From a virus (lineage: Duplodnaviria > Heunggongvirae > Uroviricota > Caudoviricetes), in the IMG/VR virus record IMGVR_UViG_2531839449_000043: DNA of 52,541 bases; one strand, written 5' to 3'. Positions 436-6,400 of this stretch are shown one piece after another (the first letter of the stretch is position 1; each line of letters begins with the position of its first letter). Made by a program: the position numbers.

Positions 436-3400
436 TGAGTTCACAGATAAAACACTCTCCAGGAAACCCGGGGCGGTTCAGCCAGTAACCCGGGTCGTCC
501 GTGTGATTCGGGTTTACGTTTTTGCTGCGATTGTCTTTGTCTTTGAGAGTGGAAACCATATTTGCTACAGTTTCTGGTTTCTTTCCTTCAGCTTTTTCTT
601 TCAGTGTCTGCCCTGTTTCTGCAATGAATGGAATGCGGATTTCCATCTGGTAACCGTCTGCGCCAGTCTTTCTGTTTGTGGTTAATACTTTCTGGAGGAC
701 GAGTCCGATTTTCTTTCCGTGAAACTCAGGTGCAACATATTTACTGACGGAAACCATATGCTGCGTTAACTGCCCAATTCCTGTGCATCCCATCATGGCG
801 TGAATAATGCTCGCCCCAAATTTATTTTCAGTGCCGTCATTCTTCTGAACACAAACACTGAGATATTGGATTTTCCGTCCGTCGTCGGATTCTCCAGAAA
901 ACTCAATGAATCGGGCACCTTTTTCTGATTGCTTGAGTTCTGCTTCGGTGATGTTAATGATATGCGCACCCGTTTCGGTAATAAAACCACCTTGTCCGGC
1001 GGTCAGTGCTGATTCTTCGTTATAAGTAAAAATCACTTCATCCATTAGTTATTAACCCCCCATTGTTCTCCAAATACAAAACCAATTTCTGCCAGTGCTT
1101 CGTCCATTTTGTCGATGAACTCCGGCACCATCTCATCAAAACTCGCCATGTACTTTTCATCCCGCTCGACCACGACATAATGCAGGCCTTCACGCTTCAT
1201 GCGTGGGTCGTAGTTGGCGAAGTACCAGGCGTCCTTGTCTGTAACCCACATGCTGAATTGCACCTGGGCCATGTAAGCAGGCTTGATAGCGTCAAAGCCG
1301 CCAAGCCGGAACTTCATGAAGTCGCGGGAAGTAAAGGGGCATTTAAGCTCAAGACCGTTACCGTCACTGCATAAACCATCGGGAGAGCAGGCGGTGCGCA
1401 TGCTTTCGTCACGAAAAATTATGGGTGTTTCCGAGACGGTAACATCCGCGATAAATTCAAAGAGGGCACGGGCATCATCTTCATATTGCTTTCCCCATGC
1501 GAGCGACTTAGCGTTAACTTCCGGTGCCACGCCAGTACAAACTTCAGCCAGCAGGGTGTGGAAGTATGACATTTTTGTATCAGGCCATTTGCTGCCGGAA
1601 CGTGGCTTTGCTATCACATTGTGAACTTCTGAAGCAGTGATAACACCGAGTCTCAGCTTGTGCCATCCATCATCGCCCTGGTCGAGGCTGGTAATATCCA
1701 CGCCAGTTCGCTGGAGAATAATTTCTGGTGTCATGACACGGCCTCGCTGTTATTTTCCGTGGTGGCGTGAATTTTCGCTTCCGCCGTGGCCTTGTTTCTG
1801 GCAGCTTTCTTTTTGACAAAATCAAGCGTTTTGACAGCTTCTTCCTGAGAGAGAGCTTCATGTGATGCAATCGTGCGACGGAATGTTTTGGAACATACGG
1901 GAAGCAGGTCATCCCATGTCTTGTTAATTTCGGTGATTGCCTGAGTGATCTCATTGATAATCTCATCTGATGCGGGAGTGACGTCACGCTCAGGGATATG
2001 ATCAGCATTCAGGATGATACCTTCACCGGCCTGAGTGTTCAGGTAGTCGATAGCTGTATCCAGGCGATCGCGACGGGGCCAGTATTTGCTGGCGCGCTTA
2101 ACAATGGCTTTTCTGGCCATTTCATCGGGGAAACTATCCCACGGGCTACTTCCTCCGTTATTTCCGGCTTTGCTGCACGCCCTGATGACCTCGATTTCCC
2201 TGTTGCTCATCTCTTCGGTCAGATAGTCGCCTTCGGATGTTTTTACGACACAATAACCGCCAATGCGTGCGCCCCTGTCTACGAAGGGGTTGTATTTGTG
2301 CGTGGGGGCGCAGTCAATACCGTTGGACTCGTAAATGTCCTTCTCGTAAACAAGTTTGCATTGCCCCCACTGAATGGCTCCTGTGACCTGTGCCAGATGC
2401 AGAAGCCCCATATAACTGATATCCAGGCATACAGCCTTTTTTCGTGGGACCAGATACGCCAGCTTGCTGGCCGGGTTCAGGGTTATGCCGATGGCGGCAA
2501 CATTGATGATAGCGTTCTGTGCGCTGGGCAGATTTGCCCTTGCTGTGTCAGCCAGAAAGGCATTTTTCTGGAATTGCTGAATTGCAAACTGACTTTCCTT
2601 CGCCCATGTCAGCGTCGGTTCAGTTAATGCCTCGCAGAAAAAGCGCTCCTGCTGCTTAACAAATTCAACGATATCGAACATTTTTTGGTCCTGAAAATCA
2701 GAAAGGACAGGGGGAGAATTTTCTCTCCCATTCTTCTTCCGCCCGAGCATAGGCGATCGCTGAGATATAATCGTTGTACGCCTCTTCAGCTTTTTCGCCA
2801 GTGAGTGCTAGTTGGGCTTCTTTGGGTAAAAAAAGGCTGCTCATAAGCAATGGTTTATCGGGGAACATGCTGATAAGCTCCTGCGCCCGATCATCAATCC
2901 ATTTATCCTTTTCATCCTGAATTTGCTGATTAATCCAGCGACGCTCCTCTATGCGGTCGCAGGTGAGGTATGCGTTCATGGCGGAACTCCTGATTCCGGT
3001 TAATGCATTAAATTAATTTGTCGGGAAAGCTGACATACAGGGCAGTTACATTCTTCCTCCTGCTCCTTAGCGAAGAAATATGCAGCGGCCTGTAATGCGA
3101 TATCTTCTGGATGTTCCGCGATAAACATAACATTGCCTTCCGTATCAATAACAGAAATAGCCTCATCAGACAGGACGACAAAATAGGCGATGATTTTATC
3201 ATCCATAAAAACTTCTCCCATTATCGTTCCTGCTGGAGTTACGACGCTTTTTACATTGATATTTATTTTTTGATTGAGCATGATATTTCCCTTCAGGCTG
3301 GTGAGATTAACGGTTGGCCTTTATTGTTCAGGTAAACTTCTATTGCATCTGAGATAATGCGAATTTTTTCAATCAGTGAATGTGCGTAAAGTGCATTATT

Positions 3401-6400
3401 AACGTTCGCTGACGCCATGTAATAACGCCCGTTGTAAAGAATTGCTGTGCCGGGTTTAACGTCCTCGCGAGAAACTAATGCGGTTCCGTAGTGAGGTTTG
3501 AGCATGACAAATCCTCCGGTTAATTAATCCAGATATTTAATTTAATCCCCGATATGTGGTCGGGGATGGGGTTAATTAAAGATTTACGTTGAAACCAAAG
3601 CGGGAAGACTTTTCTGATGTACGGGAAATATCCAGCAATTTACGGCGCATTTCTTCCGTCAGATGCTTGAAGGCGTTAAATTCGGCGACAGCTGCATCGA
3701 CGTTATAGCCGTTACGACGTAATTCATTAAATATGCGCATTGCAGGGCTTGGCATGTCGAATAAGACGGAGGTATCAAGCTGCAATGTATTTCTATCAAC
3801 ATAGTTCATCGTGGCATAGGGGTGATGCTCTGAAAACCACGATAAAGGGAAATTGATATTCATCGCAGGATAAGACAGGGCCAGTTGTTTCTGTTCCCAT
3901 AGTTGTTTTTCCATGCGATCGAATTCAGCAATGTAGGCTTCCTTGAATGCAGCTGCTTTTTTGCCGGTGAAGCCCATCACCAGAAAAACGAATCCGTTTT
4001 TGGTGATTTGGTACATTGGGCGTTGTTCGCCTTTGGCGTCGGTGTAGGTAACGTCCGCAAAATTGCGGGCGTTAAATTCCGTAGAACAATCCATCAATCG
4101 GATTTTTTTTAAAACGTCGTCGTGCCGCTTGTCAAAAAATTCAGCAATAGCAATAGACGTTGTGACAACGCGACCATTGGTAATGGTGATTTCAGGTTGA
4201 GAAAGGGCAGGGATAGTAGCCATAATGGCAGCCTCCTTGATTGGTGATTGAGAACCACCGCAGGAGGTCCTAAGCTCGCTGGCGGTGGACTGTACAGGGT
4301 TAGGACTACTGGCAATCAAGGGAACCAGCCCGACCGAAGTCGGCCCCATACAGCCCACCATTGATAAGATGTGCGTGTATATCGATACAAAAAAAGACGC
4401 TGGCGCGTCTGTATCGCCTCGATTGTCAGCGGGGTCCTAATCCCGACACCCGTTTTATAAGGTGTTCGCCAAATATAGCCCCCGACATCACACGCAGTCA
4501 ATACCGTCCTTTCTCAGAAACGCTTTGGCGGTGCCGCCTGCACCCCAAAACATTCCCTGTATTGGTCAGCGCCAACTTCCTGCCAGTGTTGCCCGTTCTC
4601 ACGCCGTTCTCGCTCTCGCGCGGGGATACTCTCTCATCGACCGGATCGCACCCGATGATACAGCACGTTTACGTGTAGGGGTCTAAACAGGTCATTGACG
4701 CTGTAAAGCTCCAGGTTGTTAAAGAGCATTTTGCGGCGGGTTAAGTCGCGCCGTACGACTGATTTATGTAGCCCTGTGTAAGGGCGCGATGTTTCTGGCT
4801 TGGGTAAAATATAATAAGTGCAACTGATCATAGTCAATAGCGAGACTAATAATCTGGTTTAATTTTAATCTATGTGGTTGATTTTTAGATTAATTTATTT
4901 ATGTAAAAAATATAAGCGAGGATAATGCAGGTGGTGAGTTATGGAGGATGCGCAAAGAAAAACCGGCGCTGAGGCCGGTTACTCTGTGTGAGATTTGGCG
5001 TGAGGGAAAAGCCCCCGGATAACACCAAGAAAAGCAGCGAACAGATTCAGAGTTGAAGCAGCGGTCACCGCAATGAGCACTTCATCTGAAAATATTTCTT
5101 TCCCCATGGCGCGGCCTGTGGCAGACAACAACAAAACAGTAGCCCACCAGTAAAGCCCATACTTGGCAACTTTATAGGCTTTTTCTGCAAATTTTTCTCT
5201 TAATTCCCTGTTAGATTTTGCATCTGCTGCGCGCTGGGCGTTTAAATTATCTCCATCTGATGAAGATTCTGTCGTTGGTGGCGTATCTTCAAGGCTTGAT
5301 ATCTCTGTGCCTGGAAATTCTGCTCCGTTCGGGATTGTGATTTTTTCAAGTTCAGACATCAATGAATGTGGTTTGCCATATCAGTATGAAGAATTGGGCC
5401 ACCATCAGGTTGACCTTTACTCCATGCCGCGTTTGGTGCATGGGTCATGTTAGAAAGCTCGGTTCCGCTGTAGCTGCCGTATACCTCAACAATTTTGTCG
5501 ATCAGCCTCCCGGTTTCTGTGTCACCATTCTGAATTGTCGGTGTGATTCGTTTCCATTCTCCATCTGAATCAATGATGATGCTGATCATTTCCTGTATTT
5601 CATTGCTCCCATATTTCTTTAACATGTGATACAGGTGCGGTATTACAGGCCCGTAAGGCCACCGCGCAAACAGATCGTCGAATAATGGCTTTCCGTTGAA
5701 TAGTTTCAGATGCCACGACTGAGTATAGAACAACAATTTTTGTAGCTTCATCGGAGTTAAATCTTTGATCTCTCCCCGCTTAGCCTTGTCAATAAAGGCG
5801 TTAGCTACGGCAGCAGCTGAATATGCCATGCTCTACTCCGCATTTTGCGAAATTAAATGTATCACCGGATAGAATACAACAAAAAGCAAATTAGAAAAAC
5901 TGATAGAGAGGGGCGGAGGAAAAAGTTAGAGGTGAACAGCAGTCACGAGTCAAAGAAAACCCGGCACAGAGGCCGAGCTAGATCTTAAAGTATTTATCTG
6001 GTCCTGCACTCATTCAGTGGAGTAGGGGCCAAGAAATCGTACTCCGTTGAAGTGAATAAGATGAGAAGGTGCATCAGCCACCCATACCTCTGTTTCCCAT
6101 GCGATTTCACCAAGATATCGTCCCATGATGGAGCGATTTGGAAAAGCGGTCACATAGACAAGTCCGGCTGTTGATCCGGCAAACAGCCTGGCAAGCTCAG
6201 CATGCCGCTTCCCATCAACCGGTCCATGACTGGTGACAGACTCAACCAGTAGCAGCCAGTTTTTCGCAGTAAAATGTAGCACCACATCTGGCATTTTACC
6301 GTGTGAATCCACATCAACACCTAGCCCGGCCAGCAGTGGAGCGTCGAAGTAGCCCCACTTTTCGCCAGTGTCGCCAGCATAGACCAGCACGCTACCCGGA

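Follow-up and report, generated by a model that had tools for sequence, protein, structure and literature searches.

What is encoded by two small open reading frames (ORFs) that precede a gam-type gene in a phage early-left operon, and are their products directed at the host? The question is raised by a stretch of tailed-phage DNA of 52,541 nucleotides (nt; IMG/VR record IMGVR_UViG_2531839449_000043, Caudoviricetes), the whole of which is referred to here as the window. An earlier note, written from the sequence alone, had singled out both ORFs as candidate host-takeover or anti-defence genes at the kil position of a lambda-like early-left operon. Both ORFs were found where it had placed them, on the minus strand at 3293-3505 (70 amino acids, aa) and at 3000-3281 (93 aa), and they do occupy the kil position, with the immunity/regulatory region on one side and the recombination module on the other. 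The overall explanation that we favour, with rather more confidence than doubt, is that an early-left inhibitor of the KilR family is combined here with a lineage-restricted accessory factor that binds a protein.

The earlier note had recognised no family for either ORF. For the 70-aa ORF this view had to be abandoned, since its product belongs to the KilR family, a name that public records already give it. The protein matched the profile phrog_294, annotated 'Kil protein for bacterial septation inhibition', over residues 1-69 (E 3.5e-32), as well as NCBIfam NF008465, 'FtsZ inhibitor protein' (E 8.2e-19, 67.4 bits). A precomputed assignment to PF27398:KilR was present on P0017, a cluster representative that is 99% identical to the 70-aa protein, and on genes at the same position in related loci (L085-L090); our own Pfam scan of the 70-aa protein gave no match with a local Pfam copy that lacks PF27398. 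Aligned directly, KilR of the Rac prophage of Escherichia coli K-12 (b1352) shared 38% identity with the 70-aa protein across 68 of its 70 residues (E 9e-15). Ten diverse KilR members were then aligned, including those of Rac, phi80, HK225, Klebsiella GZ7, Citrobacter, Pantoea and Salmonella. Residues G7, T8, R13, V16, P18, G19, S32 and L59 were invariant in this alignment and all are present in the 70-aa protein, which also keeps every near-invariant position (H5, Y6, A31, A33, L39, Y40, E46 and G63) and the G-x-P of the C-terminal tail. Identical genes in public phage records already carry the names kilR, Kil or 'host killing protein'. With high confidence, then, we assign the 70-aa ORF to the KilR family as a divergent member.

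Structure prediction and fold search, which the earlier note had proposed as a check, yielded confident models for both proteins (pLDDT, the score of the predicted local distance difference test, 90.4 for the 70-aa and 81.6 for the 93-aa protein) but no significant match in the PDB for either. In the AlphaFold2 (AF2) model of the 70-aa protein, built with nine homologues, six strands span residues 8-59, and no regular structure is predicted at residues 1-7 and 60-70, leaving seven N-terminal and 11 C-terminal residues free. Rac KilR likewise has a beta core, flanked by unstructured ends of 7 and 12 residues (Marepalli et al., PMC12482147). A Foldseek search of the PDB with the 70-aa model returned nothing at E <= 0.001. 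There was a weak likeness to the SH3-like N-domain of eIF5A/EF-P (template modelling score, TM, 0.5-0.63; E >= 0.06), a result that says nothing on function. Neither ORF matched the PADLOC defence models, and no paper mentioning phrog_294 or phrog_1635, the profile matched by the 93-aa protein, was found in the literature. The supplements of a phage accessory-gene screen (preprint 10.1101/2023.04.06.535777) contained neither ORF's protein sequence nor the phage names.

The activity of Rac KilR has been described in some detail. At low dose it causes filamentation and loss of the Z-ring, and at high dose rounding of the cells and mislocalisation of MreB (PMC12482147). Extra FtsZ suppresses its toxicity, for which KilR alone suffices (PMC12482147). 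The C-terminal tail is required for toxicity in a length-dependent manner, small changes in its length altering the phenotype (PMC12482147). Because of the homology between the two proteins, we infer that the 70-aa product is an inhibitor of FtsZ-dependent division, possibly also of MreB-dependent elongation, acting early after induction, and by analogy with Rac KilR this seems very probable. Upon prophage induction the 70-aa product would bind the host division machinery (FtsZ, and possibly MreB at higher dose) by means of its small SH3-like beta core and short flexible C-terminal tail, and septation would be arrested while the phage replicates. The suggestion in the earlier note that host division might be the target is thus supported, by homology to a KilR-family FtsZ inhibitor, for the 70-aa ORF; the 93-aa ORF, whose product lacks an informative homologue, may have the metal-binding or anti-defence role that the earlier note proposed.

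Comparison with individual family members places the 70-aa protein more precisely. It shares with Rac KilR (PF27398, NF008465, phrog_294) a length of about 70 aa, full-length similarity that includes the invariant residues, a predicted beta core with short free termini, and an early-left gene upstream of recombination genes. The two differ in the sequence of the tail, which is one residue shorter in the window protein, and in that the latter misses the NF008465 cut-off. Rac is a cryptic prophage, whereas the 70-aa gene lies in an inducible Stx (Shiga toxin) phage, and in Rac the kilR gene is followed by ydaE-racC-recE rather than by a 93-aa gene and gamL. The full Rac order is kilR, ydaE (56 aa, annotated as zinc-binding, with a 1-base overlap with kilR), racC, recE and recT. 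Kil of phi80 (PHI80_42, annotated as an FtsZ inhibitor) is 39% identical to the 70-aa protein and also has gamL and recT downstream; the phi80 order is N, kil, a 278-aa ORF, agt, gamL and recT, so that the 278-aa ORF and agt/mog stand between kil and gamL where the window has the single 93-aa gene. Lambda Kil resembles the 70-aa protein in its position just upstream of gam and, in general terms, in the FtsZ inhibition that is predicted for the latter. However, lambda Kil is unrelated to KilR in sequence and depends on ZipA (PMC12482147), and the 70-aa protein matched the KilR-type PHROG only.

Both ORFs are genuine genes under purifying selection. For each gene, 10-11 distinct alleles were collected from related loci, and the ratio of non-synonymous to synonymous polymorphism (pN/pS) in the annotated frame was 0.12 for the 70-aa ORF, 0.23 for the 93-aa ORF and 0.15 for gamL, compared to 0.74-2.55 when the same DNA was read in the two other frames. 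The alleles were intact in every case, and their variable sites clustered at third codon positions. An overlapping 64-aa ORF in another frame (3008-3202) was rejected as a gene on its off-frame pN/pS of 0.74-1.27. The 93-aa gene diverges slightly faster than its neighbours, its most divergent alleles having 87-88% aa identity as against 90-98% for the neighbouring genes; in these same alleles the arrangement and spacing of kilR, 93-aa gene and gamL are unchanged. Both genes are conserved among related phages, a point on which the earlier note had made its suggestion depend.

The 93-aa protein matched phrog_1635, a profile annotated as of unknown function, over residues 1-93 of its 93 positions (E 2.1e-64), and no significant Pfam or NCBIfam family. 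A word-index search of 5.8 billion proteins recovered only E. coli proteins of at least 87% identity. Similarly, phmmer, run exhaustively on 1.84 billion cluster representatives, recovered only its own cluster, fragments of that cluster and four long repeat proteins (1073-1554 aa). When their sequences were read, the repeat proteins were judged spurious, their E values arising from the summation of 6-11 weak repeat matches. Four candidate relationships within the operons under comparison were likewise rejected: to RacC (no BLASTP match, hhalign probability 3.8%), to YdaE (no BLASTP alignment and no common PHROG), to phi80 Agt (BLASTP E 3.0) and, as a possible duplicate, to the adjacent kilR-like gene (hhalign probability 0.1%). 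The 93-aa gene is carried by 148 of 5426 complete E. coli genomes and is chromosomal every time. We conclude that it is a lineage-restricted orphan and an accessory gene of the sort that lambdoid early operons often contain.

The 93-aa protein is acidic (isoelectric point, pI, 4.32; net charge -9.3; 14 Asp+Glu as against 5 Lys+Arg) and contains exactly three cysteines, arranged as C78-N-C80-P-V-C83 near the C-terminus (codons at 3033-3050). The earlier note had read a 'CxC...CPxC' cluster in this region; the cysteines are indeed present and invariant, but there are three of them, CxC and CPxC sharing the middle one, and not two separate pairs. C78, C80, C83 and the terminal His93 (codon at 3003-3005) are invariant in all full-length alleles, and His93 is a candidate fourth metal ligand. 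The sole zinc-related profile match was to DUF2769 and was insignificant, lying below the cut-off (E 0.028). In the AF2 model of the 93-aa protein, obtained from a shallow alignment, five strands lie between residues 8 and 55 and are followed by a long helix (58-77) and a second helix (81-91), with the cysteine cluster at the helix junction. From this model the protein would consist of a beta sheet of five strands that packs against a long helix. The CxCPxC...H cluster probably holds zinc or forms a redox pair. Such a protein would most likely bind, and inhibit or modulate, another protein, whether a host factor or the product of a neighbouring gene, rather than DNA.

Remote relatives of the 93-aa protein were found in jumbo phages. 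These 71-aa proteins (121Q gp120 and its counterparts in PBECO4 and Salmonella SD-1_S14; phrog_25670) share 31% identity with residues 10-74 of the 93-aa protein, with reciprocal PHROG E values of 5.7e-4 and 3.7e-3. The C-terminal cysteine region and the C-terminal helix are missing from them, and the gene for 121Q gp120 belongs to a virulent jumbo phage, where its surroundings are tRNA genes and small hypothetical ORFs. Inclusion of the 121Q relative in the profile added jumbo-phage proteins only. Most of the jumbo phages with such relatives are absent from the KilR matches, and among Salmonella records four match the 93-aa protein and two match KilR, one of the latter being the 40-kb phage SEN34. 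These observations suggest that the N-terminal fold of the 93-aa protein can act independently of KilR, within the limits of a relationship that is remote and of proteins that carry no cysteine cluster.

A different identity is implied by the databases, as several members of the 93-aa cluster are named 'AbrB family transcriptional regulator' by NCBI. On that reading the protein would be a DNA-binding regulator, and the name in these records is what speaks for it; most current RefSeq records say hypothetical. We found no match to Pfam AbrB/MazE (PF04014) at E <= 0.1 and none in NCBIfam. When all PDB sequences were searched with a profile, no AbrB, MazE or SpoVT match emerged at E <= 10, and no AbrB, MazE or SpoVT structure appeared among the top 50 Foldseek matches of the 93-aa model in the PDB. 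The strong acidity of the protein (pI 4.3, net -9) is the opposite of the charge needed by a DNA-binding protein. An AbrB, SpoVT or MazE identity thus finds no support in profile, fold or charge, and a role as an AbrB-family regulator is so improbable that we regard it as effectively refuted in silico.

We next consider how the two genes are placed in the operon, where the transcription order is Rha-like regulator, kilR-like gene, 93-aa gene, gamL, recT, exo and then an SSB-like (single-stranded DNA-binding protein-like) gene. Direct reading of the minus strand showed a Shine-Dalgarno sequence, GGAGGA (3512-3517), with a 6-nt spacer to the ATG of the kilR-like gene at 3505. The corresponding sequence of the 93-aa gene, AAGGGA (3288-3293), precedes an ATG at 3281 and overlaps the TGA stop codon of the kilR-like gene (3293-3295), an arrangement that suggests translational coupling. 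The stop of the 93-aa ORF (3000) lies 20 nt ahead of the gamL ATG (2979), and gamL has its own AGGAG. The two ORFs are thus consecutive members of a compact early-left operon and are probably translationally coupled. The downstream neighbour, which the earlier note had called gam, does encode a Gam-type inhibitor but not lambda Gam: gamL (2698-2979, minus strand, 93 aa) specifies a phi80-type RecBCD/SbcCD inhibitor (NF033500 phi80_GamL, E 1.8e-44; phrog_1050) with 74% identity to phi80 GamL. RecT (1731-2681) and a YqaJ-type exonuclease (1045-1734) follow on the same strand.

To see what occupies the position between kil and gamL elsewhere, 77 IMG/VR loci were fetched, in 75 of which gamL could be placed. 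The slot was filled by the 93-aa gene in 33 loci, whose GamL is in every case at least 97% identical to that of the window, and by a homologue of Agt (300-396 aa) in about 20. In about 14 loci (for example L040, L041, L046, L052 and L055) it was empty, with 71-79 nt separating kil from the gamL downstream of it. Two loci had an HNH/AP2 endonuclease, two more (L043 and L066) a DUF3268 zinc-finger protein, and the remainder other small ORFs. Given these varied contents across the 75 loci, the kil-gamL slot is an exchangeable accessory, or cargo, position. In a second survey, 230 kilR-family loci (L091-L250 among them) were covered by single-protein scans, the set being highly redundant. Here the gene right after kil in Rac and in HK225/Gifsy types encodes a four-cysteine protein of YdaE type. 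Three unrelated families of cysteine-cluster or zinc proteins, namely YdaE, DUF3268 and the 93-aa protein, therefore occur directly 3' of kilR-family genes, making up about three of the seven distinct families found downstream of kil. A recurring functional pairing of kilR with a small cysteine-cluster or zinc protein is suggestive only.

Which protein might the 93-aa product bind? One reading makes it a modifier of, or antidote to, GamL, a functional analogue of phi80 Agt/Mog that would temper the toxicity of the RecBCD/SbcCD inhibitor. The phi80 precedent has as its sole basis the GenBank annotation, in which the gene directly upstream of gamL, agt, is described as 'anti-toxin for Gam; Mog (modifier of Gam)' and gamL as 'toxic without Mog'. 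The 93-aa gene shares with agt the position immediately upstream of gamL, at a distance of 20 nt compared to a gap of 8 nt in phi80-type loci, and its restriction to GamL alleles at least 97% identical to that of the window, in 33 of 33 loci, also speaks for this reading. However, Agt of phi80 has 322 aa, no cysteine cluster and a charged stretch in which Glu, Arg, Ala and Lys abound, and shows no similarity to the 93-aa protein, which is also far shorter than the 300-396 aa of the Agt homologues. In addition, the roughly 14 gamL loci with kil directly upstream indicate that GamL has no general need for a partner, and the jumbo-phage relatives are found in another gene context. On balance a GamL modifier is improbable. 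In this connection, the phi80 record has GamL toxic without Agt/Mog, yet about 14 GamL phages have an empty slot; either the GamL alleles of these phages are less toxic or the modifier function is located elsewhere. A second reading turns to the other neighbour and casts the 93-aa protein as a cofactor, timer or antidote of the KilR-like protein, the role that YdaE may have in Rac. It draws on the three unrelated cysteine-cluster families directly after kilR-family genes (DUF3268 in two loci, YdaE in Rac and in HK225/Gifsy-type phages) and on the overlap of the 93-aa ribosome-binding site with the kilR-like stop codon. YdaE (zinc-binding, phrog_1520) is indeed a small cysteine protein encoded directly downstream of a kilR-family gene, but it has 56 aa, four cysteines in two pairs, no beta domain and no similarity to the 93-aa protein. 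We found no paper linking YdaE functionally to KilR, and YdaE itself has no assigned role. Moreover, the cysteine-cluster proteins make up only about three of seven downstream families in a highly redundant set of loci, gamL, Agt or an HNH gene comes straight after many kil genes, and Rac KilR is toxic by itself (PMC12482147). We rate a KilR partner no higher than a GamL modifier.

A further reading concerns the 70-aa protein, which could keep the KilR fold but have acquired another target or lost its toxicity. Its 38% identity to Rac KilR, its score below the NCBIfam cut-off and its differing C-terminal tail would fit such a change, the more so as small alterations in tail length change the Rac KilR phenotype. 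Set against this are the pN/pS of 0.12, the retention of the invariant residues and of the tail G-x-P, the same predicted architecture and the same operon position across many phages, and we consider a change of target or loss of toxicity quite unlikely. The explanation that we favour, a KilR-family inhibitor accompanied by a lineage-restricted factor that binds a protein, nevertheless has to be held against several observations that do not sit easily with it. The 70-aa protein is just 38% identical to the sole tested protein; its NF008465 score, though significant, lies under the curated 92-bit cut-off, and the narrow subfamily of Rac type named by this model does not include it; and its tail, NNKGQPLISPA, differs from the Rac KilR tail, GRDGLPVKAESW. 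The 93-aa model had no Foldseek match in the PDB at E <= 0.001 (best E 0.2), and in BFVD it matched uncharacterised small phage proteins only. With three cysteines alone, metal binding by the 93-aa protein would require His93 or a dimer. Finally, the 93-aa gene always occurs with the same kilR and gamL alleles, in all 33 IMG/VR loci and also for its most divergent alleles, and such constant co-inheritance makes an obligate partnership with either neighbour inseparable from simple linkage. Within the favoured explanation, that the 93-aa protein acts on a host target without involvement of its neighbours is a tentative proposal to which we give slightly less than even weight. Bolder, and rather unlikely, is the proposal that this acidic protein is the first of a new family, small phage inhibitors that depend on a metal. 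Such an inhibitor would act against a host defence or repair factor while clinically important Stx2a phages are being induced, or else tune how toxic KilR or GamL is. In the tuning case, the 93-aa protein would be a non-homologous replacement of phi80 Agt/Mog or Rac YdaE, and 'kilR plus small zinc protein' would be a recurrent two-gene unit.

We also traced the phage from which the two genes derive. Over positions 2600-3700 the window shares 99-100% identity with more than 90 Stx2a-converting phages, among them the Oslovirus-type phages TL-2011c and Lyz12581Vzw, the O104:H4 phages P13374 and phiON-2011, Shigella phage Ss-VASD, and PA2/PA8. The window itself carries a gene for the Stx2 A subunit at 15386-16345 (319 aa, ribosome-inactivating-protein family), and its long ORFs from 245 to 9282 are all on the minus strand. 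Both small ORFs are early genes of an Stx2a-converting Oslovirus prophage of the TL-2011c / O104:H4 phage type. The kilR-like / 93-aa / gamL block is present in the Stx2a phages from the O104:H4 outbreak of 2011, in TL-2011c, in Ss-VASD of Shigella sonnei and in many O157 and non-O157 E. coli strains that make Shiga toxin (STEC). An early KilR-type inhibitor would block division of the toxin-producing cell and could affect filamentation, lysis timing and toxin release, an idea that follows from known KilR biology and is not a new concept. The finding as a whole is sound but ordinary, the kilR-like gene being already annotated in public records. What is gained is a firm family assignment for the 70-aa protein, the removal of a wrong AbrB name from the 93-aa protein and a map of the variable kil-gamL slot. 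The 93-aa gene, which is conserved, selected, lineage-restricted and misnamed in databases, is the only part with discovery potential.

Several features upstream of the two genes were noted in passing. Between the Rha-like and kilR-like genes, a GC hairpin of the form CCCCGA-7 nt-TCGGGG was read directly on the minus strand (3547-3565). It lacks a T tract and a terminator scan made no call there; it could conceivably serve as an RNA processing or attenuation site. The Rha-family regulator, or antirepressor-like, gene (3576-4223, minus strand; Pfam Phage_pRha, E 1.8e-30; TIGR02681) was taken as the 648-bp coding sequence annotated in near-identical phages. Its longest ORF reaches 4361, and the N-terminal extension in this long form (3576-4361) matches Pfam Phage_ASH. 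A C4 antisense RNA (RF01695, 78.9 bits, 4278-4365, minus strand) lies directly 5' of the Rha-family gene and overlaps its long form, and an isrK Hfq-binding RNA (RF01394, 61.7 bits, 4390-4465, minus strand) is also located 5' of it. This arrangement resembles the immI module of phage P1 (c4 RNA, icd, ant), found here in a lambdoid early-left region; if the likeness is true, the operon may contain a second division-inhibitor-like element.

Farther upstream, a gene for a 127-aa protein with a hydrophobic C-terminal half (4979-5362, phrog_33656) overlaps by four bases a gene for a SocA/Panacea-domain protein (5359-5829; Pfam PF13274, E 4.5e-22), both on the minus strand. The pair had no PADLOC match and may represent a Panacea-type toxin-antitoxin or defence pair. 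Between the early-left genes and a CI-like repressor gene (8524-9282, minus strand) are genes for a BsuBI/PstI-type type II restriction endonuclease (6010-6963) and its partner, an Eco57I-type methyltransferase (6960-8429), both on the minus strand, constituting a phage-borne restriction-modification system in the immunity-proximal region (6010-8429).

At the ends of the window the phage sequence gives way to other DNA. The first ~480 bases are non-phage, similarity to related Stx phages starting at 481, and they include a fragment of an IS3-type transposase with an rve domain (10-438, plus strand). The SSB-like gene (245-1045, minus strand) runs on into this insertion sequence, giving an ORF of 266 aa compared to 195 aa in Lyz12581Vzw, and the left arm of the prophage appears to have been cut by the insertion sequence. 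At the right end, a gene of the formate/nitrite-transporter family (51609-52541, minus strand; Pfam PF01226, E 1.1e-48) presumably belongs to the host chromosome beside the prophage.

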